The notes: generated by a model not told the origin, from the letters alone. A stretch of 24,000 nucleotides of DNA from Leptotrichia sp. oral taxon 212 (GCF_001274535.1 NZ_CP012410.1:755126-779125), one strand, 5' to 3'. Shown: positions 2,751 to 12,195, counted from the stretch's first letter. Numbers and translations are program-made.

Positions 2751-3980
2751 TTATTTATCATTAAAATATTTAATTCTTTTTGGAGTACTTTCCATTTTTT
2801 CAATAACATTACCTGGAAGATATATTTCAATGATGGATTTTTTATCAGAATAATATCTGACAAAAATTTTTATATATTCATTTGAAAAATCAAAAGAATC
2901 GTTATCCTTAAAATAACTGATGGAATCAATATCTTTCAATTTAAAAGTGCGAAGGAGTTCTTCAATTTTTGGATAATATCTTTTTATTTCATTGAGTTTT
3001 CGTGTAAGGGTGTAAAATAAAACTATCGGAGATTTAACGGTTTTAAATTCACTTACATAAAGTTTCAAATTATCTGATGCGAGATTGAGCATTAATGTTC
3101 TTTTCAAATTTTTTTCAAAATTTTCAGAAAAAGAACTCTTAGCATGATTTATATTGTCATATACATATTTATATCCCCTCTTTGCTACATACAGTACAAA
3201 TAAACGATAAATTTCTTCAGGATTAGAAATTTTTTCTTTAATAAGCTCAAGCATTTTATAGATTGTATTGTCATATGGACTGTAAGGCTGTCTTGATTTA
3301 GTTATAAAAAAATTGATAGAAACAATTTTATTGGTAGGTTTTCCGCTTTCCTTTATTTTTTCATATTTAACGGAAAAATCTGTAAAAGTATTTATATCCA
3401 TTATAGCCTTTTTTAAAATATGTTTCTCAAAGTCAAAAAATCTTTCATACTTATTATCTGCATTAAGGTGCATTTTTACAGATGAAAGAGGAAGACAGAC
3501 TTCATTTTTATCTTCGGCATTCTTGATAATATTGTTATAAAAACCAAATGAAAAGGAATCCGTCATAAAAATAAATTTTTCAATTTCAAGAAGAGAAAAG
3601 AAACTTTTTTTGAGAGAAAAACAGTTCTTGAATTCTTCTGTAAAAAATATCTGACAATAATCAGAGTGCAAAATAAAAGATGAAAGAATTCCAAAAAAAC
3701 CGGAAAAATTAATGTCCGGAGAAAAAACAGAAAAAGATATATACTTTTCTGATAGAGCTTTAAAAAATGAATTAAAATTATTAATAGAAGAAAATTCAGG
3801 TATGGAAAGAATTTCTTCAAATCTGATTTCAGCTTTTTCCAGAAAATAGGAATCTGAAACAATTTTGAAAAATAATAATTTAAGAAATATCTTTTCATTT
3901 TTTGTTATTTTTTTAGAAAATTCAAGTTTAATATCCTTTTTCTGAAAATTTGTAAATTTTTGTGAAAAATATATGTTCAT
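2751..3980 (-). CDS. Rep_3-like (RepA/pi-type, tandem winged-helix) replication-initiator homolog with an extra ~180-aa C-terminal region
   Basis: 409-aa ORF with AGGAG 7 nt before the ATG. The segment CLPLSSVKMHLNADNKYERFFDFEKHILKKAIMDINTFTDFSVKYEKIK...KIVSINFFI follows the pattern I remember from pSC101 RepA (ISLDEFKFMLMLENNYHEFKRLNQWVLKPISKDLNTYSNMKLVV...LIFQV). The N-terminal part also fits the first WH domain loosely. The gene is visibly more AT-rich than its neighbours. Confidence 0.6.
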   Translation of the reverse strand: MNIYFSQKFTNFQKKDIKLEFSKKITKNEKIFLKLLFFKIVSDSYFLEKAEIRFEEILSIPEFSSINNFNSFFKALSEKYISFSVFSPDINFSGFFGILSSFILHSDYCQIFFTEEFKNCFSLKKSFFSLLEIEKFIFMTDSFSFGFYNNIIKNAEDKNEVCLPLSSVKMHLNADNKYERFFDFEKHILKKAIMDINTFTDFSVKYEKIKESGKPTNKIVSINFFITKSRQPYSPYDNTIYKMLELIKEKISNPEEIYRLFVLYVAKRGYKYVYDNINHAKSSFSENFEKNLKRTLMLNLASDNLKLYVSEFKTVKSPIVLFYTLTRKLNEIKRYYPKIEELLRTFKLKDIDSISYFKDNDSFDFSNEYIKIFVRYYSDKKSIIEIYLPGNVIEKMESTPKRIKYFNDK

Positions 3981-4216: not shown

Positions 4217-4269
4217 GATAATGAAAACAATAAAGATAAAATTTTAATTTTAATGTGGAGGAAGAGAAA

Positions 4270-5166
4270 ATGGGAAAAAGATTGCTTAGCTGCTTTACCA
4301 GTGATTTTAATAAAATGTCTGGTCAGGATTTAAAGAATGCAATAAAGGCAAGTGAAGGCAGAACAGTGTTGTCAGAAAATGTTGCAGGAAGAAGAAGCGT
4401 TACAGGTGATGTCACAAATAGTGAACTGGCAAGAGCTTTTGGAGCAGACCTTATACTGCTGAATGGAATTGATGTGTATAATCCGGTTATAGATGCTCTT
4501 CCTGAGTCAGATGAGCCTATAAAGCTTGTAAAAAAACTTACAGGAAGACCTATAGGACTTAATCTGGAACCTGTAGATCTGAAAGCTGACATGATGGAAG
4601 AAATAGAGATTATCCCTGAAGGAAGAATATGTTCAGAAGCTACACTGAAAAAGATAGAAAAAATGGGATTTGACTTTGTATGCCTGACAGGTAATCCTGG
4701 AACAGGAGTTACAAACAGCCAGATTGCTGAAGGAATAAAACTGGCTAAAAAGCATTTTTCAGGAATGGTAATAGCAGGTAAAATGCACTCTGCAGGAGTT
4801 GACGAACCTGTTGCAAATTTAGATGTTGTAAAAGAATTTATTGAAAGTGGTGCAGATGTTATAATGCTTCCGGCTGTAGGAACAGTACCTGGATTTACTC
4901 AGAGTGAAATGGAAAAAGCTGTAAAATATATCAAAGAAAATGGAGCACTTTCAATGTCTGCAATAGGAACAAGTCAGGAAAGCTCCACAAGAGAAACAAT
5001 AAGACAAATAGCGATAATGAATAAAATTGCGGGAGTGGATATTCAGCATATTGGAGATGCAGGATATTCAGGAGTTGCAAACTTTGAAAATATAATGGAA
5101 CTTTCCATAGCAATAAGAGGAGTAAGACATACAGTCAGAATGATTGCAGCTTCAAATGACAGATAG
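4270..5166 (+). CDS. Conserved hypothetical protein of unknown function (alternating beta/alpha pattern suggests a TIM-barrel-like fold); first gene of the PTS locus
   Basis: The ORF track starts at GTG 4255, but GGAGG (4257-4261) sits 8 nt before ATG 4270 (MGKRLL...), so 4270 is preferred. The sequence is non-repetitive and soluble-looking (ADLILLNGIDVYNP, CLTGNPGTGVTN, GADVIMLPAVGTVPG). I do not recognise a named family. Confidence 0.7.
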   Translation: MGKRLLSCFTSDFNKMSGQDLKNAIKASEGRTVLSENVAGRRSVTGDVTNSELARAFGADLILLNGIDVYNPVIDALPESDEPIKLVKKLTGRPIGLNLEPVDLKADMMEEIEIIPEGRICSEATLKKIEKMGFDFVCLTGNPGTGVTNSQIAEGIKLAKKHFSGMVIAGKMHSAGVDEPVANLDVVKEFIESGADVIMLPAVGTVPGFTQSEMEKAVKYIKENGALSMSAIGTSQESSTRETIRQIAIMNKIAGVDIQHIGDAGYSGVANFENIMELSIAIRGVRHTVRMIAASNDR

Positions 5167-5204
5167 AAAAATAAAAAATAAATATATATATTTTAGGAGG
5201 TTTT

Positions 5205-5531
5205 ATGAAAAGAATATACTTGTTTTGCAGTGCAGGAATGTCTACAAGCTTAGTTGCCAAAAGGATGCAGGAAGTGGCAGATAAACATAGTCTTCCCGTT
5301 GAAGTGAAGGCTTTTCCTGACAATAAGATAGATGTTATTGTCGAGGAATTTCATCCTGATGTAATTCTTTTAGGACCACAGGTAAAGTTTAAGCTTGAAC
5401 AGACAGCTTCAAAATACGAACCACAGGGTATTCCAGTAGCAGTAATTGATCTTGAAGATTATGGAAAAGTTGATGGAGAACGTATTTTAAAGAGAGCAAT
5501 AAAAATATTGAAGGAAAAGGCAGGGAAATAA
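5205..5531 (+). CDS. PTS EIIB component, lactose/cellobiose (chitobiose) family
   Basis: 108 aa with RBS TAGGAGG. The N-terminal MKRIYLFCSAGMSTSLVAKRM carries the phospho-Cys motif typical of Lac-family IIB proteins. Confidence 0.9.
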   Translation: MKRIYLFCSAGMSTSLVAKRMQEVADKHSLPVEVKAFPDNKIDVIVEEFHPDVILLGPQVKFKLEQTASKYEPQGIPVAVIDLEDYGKVDGERILKRAIKILKEKAGK

Positions 5532-5532
5532 T

Positions 5533-6882
5533 ATGTTTGATAAGTTGGAAAAAGTGTTAGGGCCTTTGGCATCTAAATTGAGTAGTAATAAAGTTTTAGC
5601 AGCAATCCGTGATGGATTTCTTGTGGGAACACCGTTAATTATAGCAGCTTCAATATTTTTAGTTATTGGTAATTTCCCTATTGAAGGATATGAAAAATTT
5701 GTTGCACAGTTTTTAGGTGAAGGATGGGACGGATATCTTAATGCTGTTATCCGTTCAACATTTGGAGTAATAGCACTTCTTGGTGTTATCGGTATTGGAT
5801 ATTATTATGCGAAGGCAAAGGGAGTAGAAGGAATTTCAGGAGCAGCTGTATCATTAGTAGCATTCCTTATTATAAGCCCTCAGTCTCATGATTTGTTTGT
5901 AAATGCAGAAGGAAAAGCTTTTAGAGGTTTTGCACTTAGAAATTTAGGAACAGAAGGTTTATTCCTTGCAATGATTACAGCATTACTTGCTGTAACTGTA
6001 TTTGCTGCAGTTAAAAATAAAGGATGGACAATAAAACTTCCTGAAGGAGTTCCGCCTGCAGTAATGAATTCATTTGCGGCATTAATACCAAGTATGTTTG
6101 TAATGCTTCTGTTCTTTGTGTTAAGACTTTTCTTCTATTTCTTTACAAAAGATCAGTATGCACATGACTTTATTTATAAAGTTCTGCAAGGTCCTCTTGA
6201 AGGTTTAGGAAAGAATCTCTTCTTTGAACCGATTTATCAGTTCCTATCAACATTATTCTGGTTCTTTGGTATTAATGGTCCTGCTGTTACAAATACAGTT
6301 TTCTCTCCATTACACCTGGCTATGACAACAGGAAATCAGGAAGCATTTGCGGCTCATATGCCATTACCTCATATATTTACAGGTTCATTCTCTGATTTCT
6401 TCTGTAACTTCGGTGGAGGAGGAAGTACACTATCTCTAGTGTTGCTGATGATTTTTAAAGGTAAGTCAGAACGTATGAAAAAATTAGGAAAATTATCTAT
6501 AGTGCCTGGAATTTTTGGAATAAACGAAATGGTTATTTTTGGACTTCCAGTTGTATTGAACCCAATTATTGCGATTCCATTTTTGTTAACACCGCTTGTT
6601 AATACAATTTTAGGTACACTTGCAACAGTATTACATATTATTCCTCGTACTACAGGAACATTATTACCTTGGACAACGCCTTTATTCTTTTCAGGATGGC
6701 TTTCTACAGGAAGTATAGTTGCAGGACTTTTCCAGATAGTACAGGTAGCAATAGGATGTATGATTTACTATCCATTCTTTAAAATATTGGATACTCAGTA
6801 TTTGCAAGATGAAACAAAACCTGTAGAACAAAATGAAAAAGATGATTTAGAAGACATTTCGCTTGATGATATCTCTTTCTAG
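5533..6882 (+). CDS. PTS EIIC permease, lactose/cellobiose family
   Basis: 449 aa, starting 1 nt after the IIB stop. It is polytopic and hydrophobic, with the Lac/Cel IIC-like N-terminus (LASKLSSNKVLAAIRDGF) and GINGP/INE motifs, and ends in an acidic tail. Confidence 0.9.
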   Translation: MFDKLEKVLGPLASKLSSNKVLAAIRDGFLVGTPLIIAASIFLVIGNFPIEGYEKFVAQFLGEGWDGYLNAVIRSTFGVIALLGVIGIGYYYAKAKGVEGISGAAVSLVAFLIISPQSHDLFVNAEGKAFRGFALRNLGTEGLFLAMITALLAVTVFAAVKNKGWTIKLPEGVPPAVMNSFAALIPSMFVMLLFFVLRLFFYFFTKDQYAHDFIYKVLQGPLEGLGKNLFFEPIYQFLSTLFWFFGINGPAVTNTVFSPLHLAMTTGNQEAFAAHMPLPHIFTGSFSDFFCNFGGGGSTLSLVLLMIFKGKSERMKKLGKLSIVPGIFGINEMVIFGLPVVLNPIIAIPFLLTPLVNTILGTLATVLHIIPRTTGTLLPWTTPLFFSGWLSTGSIVAGLFQIVQVAIGCMIYYPFFKILDTQYLQDETKPVEQNEKDDLEDISLDDISF

Positions 6883-6907
6883 AAAATATAATTTGTATTG
6901 AATAAGG

Positions 6908-6952
6908 CTGTTTCAAAATTAATTTATAAATTTTAATTTTGGGGCAGTTTTG
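6908..6952 (+). terminator. Rho-independent terminator after the IIC gene (plus-strand specific)
   Basis: CTGTTTCAAAATTAA (6908-6922) pairs with TTAATTTTGGGGCAG (6933-6947) to form a 15-bp stem. Three positions are U-G wobbles that pair only in the plus-strand RNA. The stem is followed by TTTTGTT. Confidence 0.55.
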
Positions 6953-7081
6953 TTCGTTATAGAGGTTACTTCAATATGAGAACTTCATTTAAGAGGAAAA
7001 TACACAAGTAATCATAAGAATAAAAGGACAGCTAATAGCAGAACATCTAAGTAAAATTTTTAGTAGTAAAGGAGACAGACA

Positions 7082-7603
7082 ATGAGAATAGTTTTATTTT
7101 TTGATCAGATTCAATCTGGAACAGGCGGGAAAGAAGGAGCTAATGTGGAACTTGCACTGGAAAAGGGTGGAATTGGTTCATACATGATGTTTTCAGAATA
7201 TATAAAAAATATAGGTGGAACAGTGCTTGCAACAACATACTGCAGCGACAACTATTTTAATGAAAATCAGGAACTTGTCCTTGAAAAAATGACGGGTCTT
7301 CTGAATAAGGTAAAAGCTGATATTCTTTTGTGTGGACCATGTTTCAACTATTACAACTATGCAGAAATGTCTTCCATTTTAGCAGAACACATAAAGAAGG
7401 AAACAGACTGTAAACCTGTAGTTGTATGTTCGGAAGAAAATAAAGAAATAATAGATAAATATAAAAATGATCTGGTAATGATAAAAATGCCCAAAAAAGG
7501 TGGAGTAGGATTACGTGAATCATTGCAGAATATGGCAAAAGTAATTAAAAAAGTTTATGATGGAGCAGATTTATCTGAAGTAAGTGATTATATATATAAA
7601 TAG
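7082..7603 (+). CDS. Stand-alone homolog of the N-terminal domain of glycine/sarcosine/betaine reductase component B (GrdB-like); function unknown
   Basis: 173 aa with RBS AAAGGAG. MRIVLFFDQIQSGTGGKEGANVELALEKGGIG...ATTYCSDNYFNENQE...ADILLCGPCFNYYNY...MPKKGGVGLRESLQNMAKV follows the remembered GrdB N-terminal pattern (YLNQFFGQIGGEEKA...GP..., CGDNYF.EN, AGPAFNAGRYG). There is no in-frame TGA and no selenocysteine region. Confidence 0.6.
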   Translation: MRIVLFFDQIQSGTGGKEGANVELALEKGGIGSYMMFSEYIKNIGGTVLATTYCSDNYFNENQELVLEKMTGLLNKVKADILLCGPCFNYYNYAEMSSILAEHIKKETDCKPVVVCSEENKEIIDKYKNDLVMIKMPKKGGVGLRESLQNMAKVIKKVYDGADLSEVSDYIYK

Positions 7604-7610
7604 TCAGAAA

Positions 7611-7836
7611 GAAACTATCTCAAAAAAGAAATAAAACATATGAAAAATATATTTATTCATTTACTAAAATTTCACTAATATAAAACAGTCATTCATAAAG
7701 AAAAAGTCAAAAACTCACCTAAAGGTTCAAACAGATGACTTTTTCTAAATTCATTTCCTGTTTTATATTGTGAAATTATAAATAATTCATAAATATAATT
7801 TTTCATATTACTCTTTAAATTTTTTTGAGACAATTC
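7611..7836. repeat. 226-bp imperfect palindrome, MITE-like, inserted between the GrdB-like and M42-like genes
   Basis: The left arm (7611-7688) and right arm (7758-7836) are reverse complements at roughly three quarters of positions by hand alignment. Examples are GAAACTATCTCAAAAAA vs GAATTGTCTCAAAAAAA at the tips, ATATGAAAAAT, ATATTTAT, and AATTTCAC..AATATAAAACAG at the inner ends. An inner hairpin is formed by AGAAAAAGTCA (7699-7709) and TGACTTTTTCT (7736-7746). Confidence 0.6.
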
Positions 7837-7838
7837 TA

Positions 7839-7867
7839 CTGAAAATTTCTATTTTTAAAAATACAAT
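7839..7867 (+). promoter_or_regulatory. Possible promoter for the peptidase genes, abutting the palindromic element
   Basis: CTGAAA (7839-7844), a 17-bp spacer, then TACAAT (7862-7867), 28 nt upstream of ATG 7895. The match to consensus is weak. Confidence 0.3.
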
Positions 7868-7894
7868 CAAATAAATAAAAGAAATGGAGAAGGT

Positions 7895-8884
7895 ATGAGA
7901 TTAGAGGAATTATGCCAATTAAGGGGAGTTTCAGGAGATGAAAAGGAAGTACATGATTTTTTATATGATGAATATAAAAAAAGAAATCTTCCAATAATAA
8001 AAGACAGACTAGGGTCGGTTTTTGGCATTAAGAAAGGAAACGATTCATCATATAAAATAATGATAAGTTCAAACATGGATGAAAGTGGAGGAATGATTTC
8101 AGACATCAGGGAAGACGGACTGATGGAATTTTTAACAATAGGACTTTATGAAAAAAGTCTGTTTGAACAGAGAACAGTAAAAGTACTTAACAGAAGACAT
8201 GAAGAATATACAGGATTTATAGTAAAAAATGAAAATGAACTTTTACTTGATACAGGATATGGAAATAAAGAGGAAGTTTTAAAAGCGGGAATTCAGATTG
8301 GAGATATTTTTTTACTTGATGTTCCAACTTTATGCCTTCCGGAAGGAGAGATACTTTCTAAAAATCTTTCTAACAGGGCAGGGCTTGAAGTTGGTCTTAC
8401 AGTTCTGGATAAACTGGAAGAAGGTAGGGAAAATCTTCCATTTGATGTAGCAGTAGGCGGAATATCCCATTCAGTAACAGGTCAGCGTGGAGCAATAACG
8501 GCAACGACTGCTGTAAAACCTGATATAGCTATTGTCATTGATGCGACATATGTAAAAGAACCTAAAGAAAATGCCGTATATATTCGCAGTTTTGATAAGT
8601 CAATGCTTCCAAATCAAATGTTAAAACAGGAATTTTATGAAGCTGCACAGAAAAAAGGATATATTCCTGAAGGGCATGTTCAGCTGGAAGCAACAGACGG
8701 TTCTTTTATCCATAAGTCATTGGAGGGAACTCCGGCAGTTGTACTTGTACTGCCTTTAAAACATAAACAGGCTCTTTTAAATTCGTTAAAAGTAAAGCAC
8801 ATAAATAATCTTAGTGATGTAATCATAGAGTTTATTAAGGGGCTGACTGCTGAAAAAATAGAAAAATTCGGATTTAAAGGGTGA
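7895..8884 (+). CDS. M42 peptidase-fold paralog with degenerate metal-binding residues (probably non-catalytic)
   Basis: 329 aa with RBS GGAGAAGG. It is collinear with the downstream M42 protein, but motifs are altered: SSNMDESG vs THMDEVG (His to Asn), KNLSNR vs KAFDNR (Asp to Ser), GISHSVTGQRGA vs TVQEEVGLRGA (Glu-Glu to His-Ser). VIDAT retains the Asp. Confidence 0.75.
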   Translation: MRLEELCQLRGVSGDEKEVHDFLYDEYKKRNLPIIKDRLGSVFGIKKGNDSSYKIMISSNMDESGGMISDIREDGLMEFLTIGLYEKSLFEQRTVKVLNRRHEEYTGFIVKNENELLLDTGYGNKEEVLKAGIQIGDIFLLDVPTLCLPEGEILSKNLSNRAGLEVGLTVLDKLEEGRENLPFDVAVGGISHSVTGQRGAITATTAVKPDIAIVIDATYVKEPKENAVYIRSFDKSMLPNQMLKQEFYEAAQKKGYIPEGHVQLEATDGSFIHKSLEGTPAVVLVLPLKHKQALLNSLKVKHINNLSDVIIEFIKGLTAEKIEKFGFKG

Positions 8885-8889
8885 GAAAA

Positions 8890-9969
8890 ATGAATTTTGA
8901 TATAAAATGGGAAGTTTTGAAGGAGCTGACAGAAACTTATGCAATTTCAGGATTTGAAGAGGATATTGTCAATATATTGAAAAAGCATATAAATCTTCCA
9001 TTTTCTCAGGATGGTCTTGGATCCTGCCTTTTTACAAAAGAAGGCAACGGTATTTCTATAATGGTAGCCACTCATATGGACGAAGTAGGATTTGTCGTAA
9101 AGGAAATAGATGAGCAGGGGTACCTGTATTTTCAGAATGTAGGAAATATGTGGTCGCATGTTCTGCTTAATCAGAAAGTGGCAGTTATAAATGAAAAAAA
9201 GAATATATATTATGGTGTTATTGGTGGACCTGCAGTCCATTCAATAAAGGAAAAGGAAAGAGAAAAGGTATTGCCAATTGATAAACTATATATTGATATG
9301 GGAGTTAGCAGTAAAAAACGGATTGAAGAACTGGGAATAAAAGTAGGAGACATGATATGTCCGTATGGAGAAATGATAGAACTGAATGAGAAAGGATACC
9401 TCGCAGGAAAAGCCTTTGATAATCGTGTAAGTGTAGCGACAGGAATATGGCTTATGAATATGCTGAAAAAGGAAAATACAGGTAATAAGGTTACTCTCGC
9501 GGCAACAGTACAGGAGGAAGTTGGGCTAAGAGGTGCAAGAACAACAGCACATAAAGTATTTCCTGACCTGGCAATAGCTGTAGATACTACTTTGGCAGGG
9601 GATACCCCCTTGAATAAAAACAATATAAAGCTTGGCAAAGGAGTAGCCATTAATGTTATTGATTCAATGACCATAATGAACAGGGGACTGCTTATTTATA
9701 TTGAAAATCTGTGCAGAAAGAATGACATTCCTTATCAGCTGAGCTGTTTTACAGATGGTGGGACTGATGCAGGAAATATTCATAAGTCAGGAACTGGAAT
9801 ACTTGCAACAACTTTATCTATACCTATGAGATACATGCATACTCATCTTGGAGTCGTACATAAGGATGATATTATTGCGACATTGAAACTGCTGAAACTG
9901 ATAATAGAAGATCTGACTCCTGAAAAGTATGACAGAATACTGAGGGAAAACTATAATTACAGTGAATAA
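8890..9969 (+). CDS. M42 family glutamyl/leucyl-type aminopeptidase (TET/FrvX/YpdE-like), catalytic motifs intact
   Basis: ATG 8890 is preferred over GTG 8881 because the RBS AAGGGTGAG precedes it. Motifs present: ATHMDEVGF, GKAFDNR, QEEVGLRGA, AIAVDTT, GGTDAG, PMRYMHT. The alternative GTG 8881 would overlap the upstream gene's stop codon (8882-8884). Confidence 0.85.
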   Translation: MNFDIKWEVLKELTETYAISGFEEDIVNILKKHINLPFSQDGLGSCLFTKEGNGISIMVATHMDEVGFVVKEIDEQGYLYFQNVGNMWSHVLLNQKVAVINEKKNIYYGVIGGPAVHSIKEKEREKVLPIDKLYIDMGVSSKKRIEELGIKVGDMICPYGEMIELNEKGYLAGKAFDNRVSVATGIWLMNMLKKENTGNKVTLAATVQEEVGLRGARTTAHKVFPDLAIAVDTTLAGDTPLNKNNIKLGKGVAINVIDSMTIMNRGLLIYIENLCRKNDIPYQLSCFTDGGTDAGNIHKSGTGILATTLSIPMRYMHTHLGVVHKDDIIATLKLLKLIIEDLTPEKYDRILRENYNYSE

Positions 9970-9996
9970 GATGAAAAAACTTGAGGAGGTAAGAAG

Positions 9997-10962
9997 ATGT
10001 GGGGAATAATTGCAACATGGTGCATGGCACATGATGGTGTCAAAGAAGCTTCAGAAATATTGAAAAATGATGGAAAAGCAGGAGAAGCGATAGAAACTGC
10101 AATAAAAAACGTTGAAGATTTTCCTTTTTATAAATCTGTAGGTTACGGTGGACTTCCAAATGAAGAAATGGAAGTCGAACTGGATGCGGCATACATGGAT
10201 GGAAGCAGCTTTGATTTTGGTGCAGTATGTGCCATTAAAGATTTTGCCAATCCTATATCTGTTGCCAGAGATTTGAGTCATTTAAATGAAAATAGCATGT
10301 TAGTAAGTGAAGGTGCAGAAAAATATGCGCATAAAAAAGGTTTTGAAAGAAAAAATATGCTTACAGAAAGGGCAAAAATACATTACAGAAACAGATTGAA
10401 GGATATGGCACATATAAAAGAAATAGAAATAAAGCCCTATTCAGGACATGATACGGTTGGTATGGTGTGCCTTGATAAAGAAGAAAATATAGTTGCAGGA
10501 ACTTCTACAAGTGGACTTTTCATGAAAAAGAAAGGAAGAGTGGGAGATTCGCCTGTAATCGGTTCAGGACTCTATGCTGACAGTGAGATTGGAGGAGCAA
10601 GTGCAACAGGACTCGGAGAAGATATAATGAAAGGAATAATTTCATATGAGATAGTAAAACTTATGGAAAGTGGTCTTTCTCCTCAGAAAGCATGTGAAAA
10701 GGCTGTCTTCACTTTTGAAAAGAAATTGATAAGAAAAAGAGGAAAAGCAGGAGATATTTCTGTAATTGCCATGAATAACAAAGGAGAATGGGGAGTAGCT
10801 ACAAATATTGAAAATTTTTCCTTTGTTGCAGGAAATGAAAAGACTCCTGTAAAAGTATACAGGACAAAAAGAAAAGGCAATGAAATGAAACACGAAGAAG
10901 CGACTGAAGAATGGCTACAGGAGTATATCAATGAAAGAACTAAACCTCTTATAGAAAAGTAA
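9997..10962 (+). CDS. Ntn-hydrolase of the Asparaginase_2 family, glycosylasparaginase (N4-(beta-N-acetylglucosaminyl)-L-asparaginase)-like, cytoplasmic
   Basis: 321 aa with RBS GAGGAGG. The autoprocessing site SGHDTVGMVCLD matches the HDT(I/V)GM signature of glycosylasparaginases rather than the GTVGAV of isoaspartyl peptidases. The N-terminus WGIIATW resembles AGA (VVNTW). GDSPVIGSGLYAD and GASATGLGEDIM are present. There is no signal peptide. Confidence 0.75.
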   Translation: MWGIIATWCMAHDGVKEASEILKNDGKAGEAIETAIKNVEDFPFYKSVGYGGLPNEEMEVELDAAYMDGSSFDFGAVCAIKDFANPISVARDLSHLNENSMLVSEGAEKYAHKKGFERKNMLTERAKIHYRNRLKDMAHIKEIEIKPYSGHDTVGMVCLDKEENIVAGTSTSGLFMKKKGRVGDSPVIGSGLYADSEIGGASATGLGEDIMKGIISYEIVKLMESGLSPQKACEKAVFTFEKKLIRKRGKAGDISVIAMNNKGEWGVATNIENFSFVAGNEKTPVKVYRTKRKGNEMKHEEATEEWLQEYINERTKPLIEK

Positions 10963-10974
10963 GGCAGGTAGAAA

Positions 10975-12195
10975 ATGGATAAAAATATGGATGTTAACAA
11001 AAAATATGACAATAGTAAGAATATTTCCAATGAGGAAATGATACAGAAAATAAAAAAAGAAGTGAAAAAAATACAGCCAGAATTAATAGAGACAATACGG
11101 GAATTAGTTTCTATTTACAGCATTCAGATGGAACCTGAAGAAAATGCTCCATTTGGAAAAGGGCCTACCGAGGCACTTAATAAAGCTCTGGAAATATCAG
11201 AAAGACTGGGATTTAATACAGTAAATATAGATAATAAAATAGGTTATGCCGAATATATACCGGAAGAAATAAGGGGTTATGAAGAATATATAGGGATTTT
11301 TGGACATGTAGATGTTGTTCCTCTTGGCGAAGGGTGGAAGTATCCTCCATTAGGTGGAAAAATAGAAAATAACCGTATATATGGAAGAGGTGTTCTAGAT
11401 AATAAAGGTCCTATTCTGTCAAATCTTTTTGCACTCCATATTCTGAAAAAATTAGGAATAAAATTTGATGTTCCTGTAAGAATAGTTTTCGGAACAAATG
11501 AAGAAACAGGATTTGCATGTGTAAAACATTATCTGACAAAGGAAAAAGCCCCTATTTTTGGCTGGACTCCTGATTGTAAATGGCCAGTTGTATACGGAGA
11601 AAGGGGAAGGCTTAAAGTAAGAATATATTCTGAAATGAAAGATTTAGAGAAATTATATGAATTTGTAAATGGATATATTTTATCAGCACCTAATAATGGT
11701 GTAAAATTAAAAATAAACTTTAAGGATGATGATTTCGGAGAAATGATATTAAGAGGGTATAGATTTGGAATTGCTGAAAATAGATATTTTTTTGAATTTG
11801 TAATGAGCTATCCTGCAATATGTAAAAAAGAACAACTTATGAATCTAATCAGGAGTAATTTGACGGAAGGAACGGAGCTGGAGGAAATTTCCAACTGGAA
11901 TCCAGTTCTATATGATAAAAGTTCTGAATATGTGTATACCTTACAGAAAGTATATAATTATGTTACAGGATTTAATGCGGAACCTGTCACAACGACAGGA
12001 GGAACTTATGCAAAGATAATTCCTAATATTATTGCATATGGCCCAAGTTTTCCAGGTCAGAAGGATATAGCACATTTACCTGATGAGTGGCTTGATTTAT
12101 CAGATTTAGAGAAAATAACAGAGATTTATGCACTTTCATTATATGAAATAAGTAAGTTGAAAAATAAAAGACAAAGTAGAAAGTTGAAAAAGTAA
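10975..12195 (+). CDS. M20 family dipeptidase (PepV/Sapep-like)
   Basis: 406 aa. Motifs: FGHVDVVPLGEGWKYPP, GRGVLDNKGP, FGTNEETG, and C-terminal TTGGTYAK...AHLPDEW. The overall layout fits PepV-type dipeptidases. Confidence 0.85.
   Translation: MDKNMDVNKKYDNSKNISNEEMIQKIKKEVKKIQPELIETIRELVSIYSIQMEPEENAPFGKGPTEALNKALEISERLGFNTVNIDNKIGYAEYIPEEIRGYEEYIGIFGHVDVVPLGEGWKYPPLGGKIENNRIYGRGVLDNKGPILSNLFALHILKKLGIKFDVPVRIVFGTNEETGFACVKHYLTKEKAPIFGWTPDCKWPVVYGERGRLKVRIYSEMKDLEKLYEFVNGYILSAPNNGVKLKINFKDDDFGEMILRGYRFGIAENRYFFEFVMSYPAICKKEQLMNLIRSNLTEGTELEEISNWNPVLYDKSSEYVYTLQKVYNYVTGFNAEPVTTTGGTYAKIIPNIIAYGPSFPGQKDIAHLPDEWLDLSDLEKITEIYALSLYEISKLKNKRQSRKLKK

Follow-up and report, generated by a model that had tools for sequence, protein, structure and literature searches.

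The window, i.e. the whole analyzed stretch of 24,000 nucleotides from Leptotrichia sp. oral taxon 212 (NZ_CP012410.1:755126-779125), contains at positions 4255-12195 a cassette of eight genes, all on the + strand, with the following features:

4255..5166, + strand: DUF7916 protein, present in the cassette of most relatives, where it is usually the last gene
5205-5531, + strand: PTS IIB of the lactose/cellobiose family (family profiles)
5533-6882, + strand: PTS IIC of the lactose/cellobiose family (family profiles)
7082..7603, + strand: GrdB-related protein without selenocysteine (NF041545, full length)
7895..8884, + strand: degenerate M42 paralog, 329 aa (PF05343, alignment, AF2, Foldseek)
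8874..8892, + strand: gene junction with a Shine-Dalgarno-like stretch, AAGGGTGAG, inside the end of the first M42 gene (base-level reading)
8890..9969, + strand: intact M42 aminopeptidase with all ligands present, 359 aa when counted from the ATG (a GTG at 8881 could also serve as the start)
9997..10962, + strand: glycosylasparaginase-like Ntn hydrolase (Asparaginase_2) with an HDT autoprocessing site (profile and sequence comparison)
10975..12195, + strand: M20 Sapep/PepV-like dipeptidase (family profiles)

In every related cassette, the gene immediately upstream of the M42 pair is the GrdB-like one, and the Ntn hydrolase scores 200 bits (E = 4e-58) against Elizabethkingia glycosylasparaginase chains, compared to 118 bits against isoaspartyl peptidases. 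An extension of the GrdB-like protein into the 290-nt gap behind its gene, by read-through at a selenocysteine codon, was considered and rejected: the ORF fills the 171-position model NF041545, which has no selenocysteine, and the gap is an insertion missing in the closest relative. This AT-rich palindromic stretch of about 270 bp (7604-7880), located between the stop codon of the GrdB-like gene and the ribosome-binding site of the degenerate M42 gene, with ATAAATA shared by its flanks, looks like a small non-coding MITE-like insertion within the operon; in the closest relative (L003), a spacer of 19 nt separates the two genes. Immediately upstream of the cassette, the - strand (2751-3980) encodes a homolog of Rep_3-like initiators (409 aa, with the PF21205 WH2 domain), which is located in the 2.44-Mb single-contig genome rather than on a plasmid. 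A scan of 6850-9000 for promoters and terminators yielded no sites above the count in shuffled sequence. The nearest named relative of the window region is a Leptotrichia MAG (88% identity).

The two M42 proteins align collinearly (28% identity, BLASTP E = 1e-27), and both match PF05343, the degenerate ORF with E = 1e-36 over profile positions 1-286 of 292 and the intact ORF with E = 6e-94. The AF2 model of the degenerate protein (pLDDT 88.5, pTM 0.88) has the two-domain layout of the M42 family and superimposes on M42 structures with TM 0.82-0.91 (Foldseek; E = 2e-31 at TM 0.90), the top match being the 9a5r model (B. subtilis YtoP-YsdC); a Pfam search detected no added domain and no match to another Pfam family. 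Among the NCBIfam M42 equivalogs (PRK09961, PRK09864, glu_aminopep and lys_aminopep), the models closest to both M42 proteins of the window are PRK09961 and PRK09864; the best score of the degenerate protein, 140.8 bits, is below the cut-off of 412. In the database records, orthologs of this protein are named 'hypothetical protein' (NCBI) or 'cellulase'.

At the junction, the TGA of the first gene (8882-8884) overlaps the second gene by 4 nt if translation of the latter starts at the GTG (8881-8883), or precedes it by a 5-nt gap if the ATG at 8890 is used. Judging from the base sequence, AAGGGTGAG is likely to be the ribosome-binding site of the intact M42 gene, and the two genes are likely to be translationally coupled. 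Seven related loci read base by base have similarly tight junctions, with M42 genes that share 4-17 nt or lie 4-5 nt from each other, and in the loci of a sister family described below, tblastn coordinates place the two M42 genes adjacent to each other or overlapping. An earlier note on this DNA had described an adjacent, collinear M42 pair, with the first ORF at these coordinates and with the same two possible junctions, and was correct on each of these points.

For analysis of the active site, the degenerate ORF was aligned to its intact neighbor, to solved M42 chains and to approximately 200 homologs, with the PhTET2 numbering checked against the catalytic E212 named in PMC8993905; family-specific residues were positioned from the sequence register together with the secondary structure prediction. 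The intact protein keeps H62, D177, E209 (catalytic), E210, D232 and H317 as well as the loop His117. In the degenerate protein, four of the five metal ligands are gone, and so is the general-base Glu (TET2 E212), as seen in the following positions, all assigned by the alignment:

8072-8074, + strand: Asn60, first His ligand lost (SSNMDE)
8369-8371, + strand: Ser159, bridging Asp lost (NLSNR)
8471-8476, + strand: Ser193-Val194, catalytic Glu replaced by Ser193 and ligand Glu by Val194
8540-8542, + strand: Asp216, fourth metal-ligand position (VIDAT), kept
8768-8770, + strand: Gln292, last (fifth) ligand, the His of RYMHT, lost

Most of this had been read correctly in the earlier note, namely, the His to Asn replacement in the HMDEVG motif, the Asp to Ser replacement at the bridging position, the Asp of VID(A)T as the sole clear survivor among the ligands, and a second copy with every motif in place. 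The replacement of Glu-Glu by His-Ser given there, however, is one residue out of register because QEE aligns with H192-S193-V194, without gaps, on the shared GxRGA. The loss of the last His was not described there, nor was the absence of two loops: the chamber loop, together with its conserved His (PAVH in the intact copy; TET2 P121-P122-H123), is lost through a 15-residue deletion, and approximately 13 residues deleted after Asp216 correspond to the entry-pore loop (TET2 P246, H248). Arg198, the equivalent of TET2 R217 in the GxRGA helix, is invariant, and the old pocket retains the invariant polar residues Ser193, His273, Lys274, Asp268, Asp62 and Glu63.

A word-index search identified 48 orthologs of the degenerate protein (41-99% identity). 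In these, ligand 1 is Asn in all but a few sequences, the bridging Asp is a variable non-ligand residue, the two Glu positions are Ser followed by Val or Ile, ligand 4 is Asp or Glu, and the last His is variable; thus, the orthologs keep the degenerate pattern, with conserved or variable non-ligand residues, across the 39 loci described below. It appears improbable that the protein still functions as a metallopeptidase via a shifted or single-metal site. Such a site could draw on Asp216, Asp62, Glu63, His273 and Asp268, all of which are conserved, and Asn60 could in principle coordinate a metal; however, four of the five canonical positions are occupied by Asn, a variable residue, Val/Ile and another variable residue, the general base has become an invariant Ser, orthologs have Gln, Tyr, Glu or other residues in place of His192 and His290, and the sister family has Thr or Cys even in place of Asp216. 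Furthermore, the AF2 model and the predicted secondary structure put the substituted residues at the strand ends that carry the ligands in canonical M42; therefore, the ligands have been replaced and are not, as the earlier note had considered, still present in a shifted position.

In six independent species pairs, dN/dS of the degenerate gene is 0.063-0.131, compared to 0.051-0.099 for the intact neighbor and 0.01-0.12 for the other cassette genes. Across phyla, identity is 41-51% for the degenerate protein, 55-61% for the intact one, 66-68% for IIC and 67-71% for the Ntn hydrolase. The combination of low dN/dS with faster cross-phylum divergence indicates that the degenerate gene is somewhat relaxed yet clearly constrained. 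That it is a decaying, functionless duplicate is accordingly contradicted by the selection data and is highly improbable, although the faster evolution and one in-frame stop point in this direction: the frame is open in 38 of the 39 loci, 49 columns are invariant in an alignment of 25 sequences of the degenerate family, and the AF2 fold is confident. The stop, a TAA in Granulicatella elegans ATCC 700633 (L008:9376-9378) at a codon that is CAA in other Granulicatella, was also recovered in the whole-genome search; the gene may be broken in this strain, in which case its loss is tolerated, or the codon may be a sequencing error. Taken together, loss of the two-metal site and of the general base, conserved under purifying selection, makes the conclusion that the upstream copy is catalytically inactive, as originally proposed, well supported at the sequence level.

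A profile search of 1.8 billion representatives, followed by tree construction, places the degenerate family within a well-supported clade (100/99). Of the 41 representatives in this clade, 40 show degeneration, to a greater or lesser extent, and one retains the full ligand set. The clade includes a fully degenerate group, which consists of the window family and a sister family with Ser, Pro or Ala at ligand 1 and Thr or Cys at ligand 4 (the Asp216 position); Ser193, in the position of the catalytic Glu, is invariant across both of these families, as are Lys274, Phe271, Thr204 and Arg100, and all five are atypical of canonical M42. Partly degenerate lineages, such as those with the H-D-N-E-Q-D-N pattern (Asp to Asn, Glu to Gln), also belong to the clade. 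The upstream M42 copies form this one clade, and ligand loss is graded and confined to the upstream lineage. In eight loci (L053-L059 and L063), the upstream copies show H-D-N-E-Q-D-N/D, whereby the bridging Asp is replaced by Asn, the ligand Glu by Gln and the last His by Asn or Asp, with the first His and the catalytic Glu kept; these copies may be intermediates in the process that leads to fully dead copies. The graded series can be read as a natural record of a subunit falling silent.

In 39 distinct loci from two phyla, a degenerate M42 gene is located directly upstream of an intact M42 gene, such that the two overlap or are no more than about 10 nt apart. The pair is found in Leptotrichiaceae, Granulicatella, Abiotrophia-like bacteria, Streptococcus, Erysipelotrichales and Vagococcus; the order GrdB-like gene, degenerate M42, intact M42 is identical in all 39 loci, and the downstream partner always has the HDDEEDH set and the loop His. 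The longer order IIB, IIC, GrdB-like, degenerate M42, intact M42, Ntn hydrolase, M20 and, often, DUF7916 is shared by Leptotrichia, Erysipelothrix, Streptococcus respiraculi, S. cuniculi and many Granulicatella. The loci that were fetched include those of the sister family in Erysipelotrichales and those around 40 GrdB-like genes in Lactobacillales, of which 17 have the pair in the cassette. Among 65 cassettes in total, as counted in windows of about 8 kb on either side in what is a sample of genomes, 39 have both M42 genes, 26 have neither, and none has just one. In four Lactobacillales cassettes (L084, L085, L089 and L091), the GrdB-like gene is followed directly by the Ntn hydrolase gene, with both M42 genes absent; these cassettes are otherwise near kin of the Granulicatella/Streptococcus type, with 74% identity to the window in IIB, 65-68% in IIC and 64-65% in the Ntn hydrolase. 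The both-or-neither counts, together with these four closely related cassettes, imply that the two M42 genes are acquired and lost together. A search of the complete 2.44-Mb single-contig genome from which the window comes detected no third M42 gene.

Loci from Sedimentibacter and related bacteria (L019-L023), which had been recovered with the family patterns, were rejected as members of the module: they contain runs of three M42 genes, with all copies ligand-complete. Four of them (L019-L022; Sedimentibacter and related Bacillota), with three tandem M42 genes each, may also encode mixed particles. One further candidate for a degenerate M42 (L040) was rejected as a canonical M42.

The degenerate gene was detected in 9 of the 190 Fusobacteriota genomes searched, all nine from one family and two genera. 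The window copy is 94-97% identical to copies in another genus of the family and 87-88% identical to those in its own genus. The closer similarity to the copies from that genus, along with the patchy distribution of the cassette, suggests that the cassette has moved laterally, both inside this family and between Fusobacteriota and Bacillota.

These observations are best accommodated if the degenerate protein joins the intact M42 as a partner without catalytic activity, in a TET-like assembly whose task is to trim glyco-peptides after their import, a reading that we favor with modest confidence. What we infer here is loss of activity, physical association and substrate. This partner role, which the earlier note had also proposed, is suggested by the fixed gene order, the overlapping or near-overlapping junctions, the both-or-neither distribution in 65 cassettes and the lack of another M42 in the genome; by the graded ligand loss that is confined to the upstream lineage, with the interface residue Arg198 retained; and by the precedents for mixed M42 particles. 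PhTET2 and PhTET3 form heterododecamers (PMC4220976), and in-cell crosslinks were detected between B. subtilis YtoP and YsdC (PMC10090944); TET2 R217 is located at the dimer-dimer interface (PMC4220976).

Several features count against such an assembly. The H248/P246 loop is deleted, so the degenerate protein may not fit a canonical dodecamer: H248 is one of the five dimer-dimer interface residues of TET2 that were mutated to slow dodecamer assembly (PMC4220976). The TAA codon of G. elegans also counts against a partner role, in that loss of the degenerate protein may be tolerated, unless the codon is a sequencing error. A metal-driven transition between dimer and dodecamer is said to have been reported by Dutoit in 2019. 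Assembly of the M42 dodecamer is metal-dependent, such that EDTA de-oligomerizes the particle and cobalt re-assembles it (PMC4220976); the degenerate protein, from its sequence, probably binds no metal, which argues against membership in a dodecamer. The P121-P122-H123 loop of TET2 stabilizes the substrate and may help to activate the catalytic water, apparently at a neighboring subunit's active site, and shows co-evolution with the entry-pore residue P246 (PMC8993905). The loop His being dropped in the degenerate protein and kept in the intact one fits like-with-like homodimers that share a particle in the manner of PhTET2/3, or else particles that are distinct for each protein, rather than a dead subunit serving a live one in a heterodimer.

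Some of the same features could be explained if the degenerate protein acts alone, as a binder of (phospho)GlcNAc-Asn, a chaperone or an aid to assembly, a regulator or a new metal-free enzyme, with the linkage reflecting a shared pathway. A binding or other non-peptidase role had been the alternative named in the earlier note. The invariant polar residues in the old pocket could indicate such a function of its own: the five atypical residues (Ser193, Lys274, Phe271, Thr204 and Arg100) are invariant in both fully degenerate families, and Asp62, Glu63, Asp268 and His273 are kept; moreover, of the loops lining the TET chamber and pore, two have been lost, including one at the dimer-dimer interface, and loss of the metal site may block dodecamer formation. 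Nevertheless, an independent function of this kind appears rather unlikely, albeit with appreciable weight, given that a degenerate M42 lacking an adjacent intact M42 occurs in 0 of the 65 cassettes, that the order is fixed and the junction overlapping or nearly so, that ligand loss is graded from an intact ancestral state, as expected of a subunit freed from catalysis, and that the protein has acquired no new domain and matches no other Pfam family. A more specific version of the partner reading is tentatively put forward as possible, somewhat short of probable: in an obligate mixed TET-like particle, dead subunits devoid of the metal site, the chamber loop and the pore loop would remodel the entry pore and the chamber such that the live subunits could trim phosphorylated glyco-peptides imported by the PTS.

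The cassette context bears on the possible substrate. As far as the locus is described in PMC11549559 (citing Combret 2023), the ega locus of E. faecalis encodes the glycosylasparaginase EgaG, lactose/cellobiose-type EIIB and EIIC, a GrdB-like 'oxidoreductase', a GntR regulator and a dipeptidase; in that description, no M42 genes are listed. The ega PTS imports GlcNAc-L-Asn with CelA1 as EIIA, and both uptake and use were demonstrated experimentally, in E. faecalis only, according to the account given in PMC11976118 (citing Combret 2023). The window cassette shares with ega the glycosylasparaginase, the EIIB and EIIC, the GrdB-like protein and the dipeptidase in one locus, but adds the M42 pair and DUF7916 and is without an adjacent GntR regulator or EIIA. 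The shared gene content therefore identifies the window cassette as a locus of the ega type to which an M42 pair has been added and, given that ega as described uses GlcNAc-Asn in the absence of M42 genes, use of the free glyco-amino acid does not require the pair. We infer that the pair might extend an ega-type route to Asn-linked glyco-peptides. In Erysipelothrix rhusiopathiae (L001:1-1999), a gene for a GH101 endo-alpha-N-acetylgalactosaminidase adjoins the cassette regulator, which is a further sign of host-glycoprotein foraging around the module.

Under the partner reading, the degenerate and intact proteins would be translated together and then co-assemble into a TET-like particle in which the intact subunits alone would cut, with the dead subunits shaping the assembly, the pore or the chamber for bulky (phospho)glyco-peptides brought in by the PTS. 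The M42 particle would trim these glyco-peptides from the N-terminus down to glyco-Asn, the M20 dipeptidase would handle the remaining dipeptide bond, and the glycosylasparaginase would finally split the glyco-Asn. The M42 pair looks like an add-on that could widen the E. faecalis-type PTS route for GlcNAc-Asn, which is used during infection, to glyco-peptides in oral and mucosal bacteria, namely Leptotrichia, Granulicatella, Abiotrophia, Streptococcus and Erysipelothrix.

M42 genes within PTS sugar operons of unknown substrate include frvX, sgcX and ypdE of E. coli; to our knowledge, these are single, ligand-intact genes, and we know of no dead partner for any of them. A literature search on FrvX, YpdE and SgcX recovered gene lists alone, and nothing was found that joins an M42 aminopeptidase, a PTS and an asparaginase. 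The proposed particle, if real, would provide a testable reason why M42 'peptidases', such as those of frvX, sgcX and ypdE and those that older annotations called the 'cellulase' CelM, are encoded within PTS sugar operons. Annotation pipelines at present label proteins of the degenerate family 'hypothetical' or 'cellulase'. The L. casei alf-2 pathway, for fucosyl-GlcNAc-Asn, reportedly relies on uptake by a permease instead of a PTS and includes no M42 genes. As in the window cassette, a cytoplasmic glycosylasparaginase, AsnA2, is linked there with a PepV-type peptidase, as far as the pathway is outlined in PMC6960285.

Pseudo-subunits beside active paralogs are already known from the M16B family (PMC11266112), as are mixed TET particles; a dead M42 partner appears to be new, with no prior description found in the literature. 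In MPP and the bacterial hetero-subunit M16B enzymes, an inactive alpha paralog without the metal motif pairs with an active beta and aids substrate handling (PMC11266112), an arrangement that the window pair resembles at the gene level; however, the M16B fold is unrelated to that of M42 (clan ME versus clan MH), and M16B forms a clamshell dimer, not a self-compartmentalizing particle. The 2024 review of pseudo-metallopeptidases (PMC11266112) does not mention M42. A widespread dead or half-dead M42 clade tied to an active neighbor would add M42 to the families with pseudo-subunits, and the mixed TET-like particle, if it exists, would contain the first pseudo-subunit in the M42/TET family. M42/TET aminopeptidases are model self-compartmentalizing proteases, whose partners in mixed particles have so far all been active. 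The window pair is similar to the TET/M42 hetero-oligomers (PhTET2/PhTET3 and YtoP-YsdC) in the fold (TM 0.82-0.91), the two-domain layout and the interface Arg of GxRGA; co-assembly of paralogs is known for these hetero-oligomers and would be a further similarity. The partners described previously are all active, with different specificities, whereas the first copy of the window pair is stripped of its metal site and general base and lacks both the Pro-Pro-His loop and the pore loop. The window pair further differs from the known TET partners in that its genes are joined as one fixed, likely translationally coupled module.
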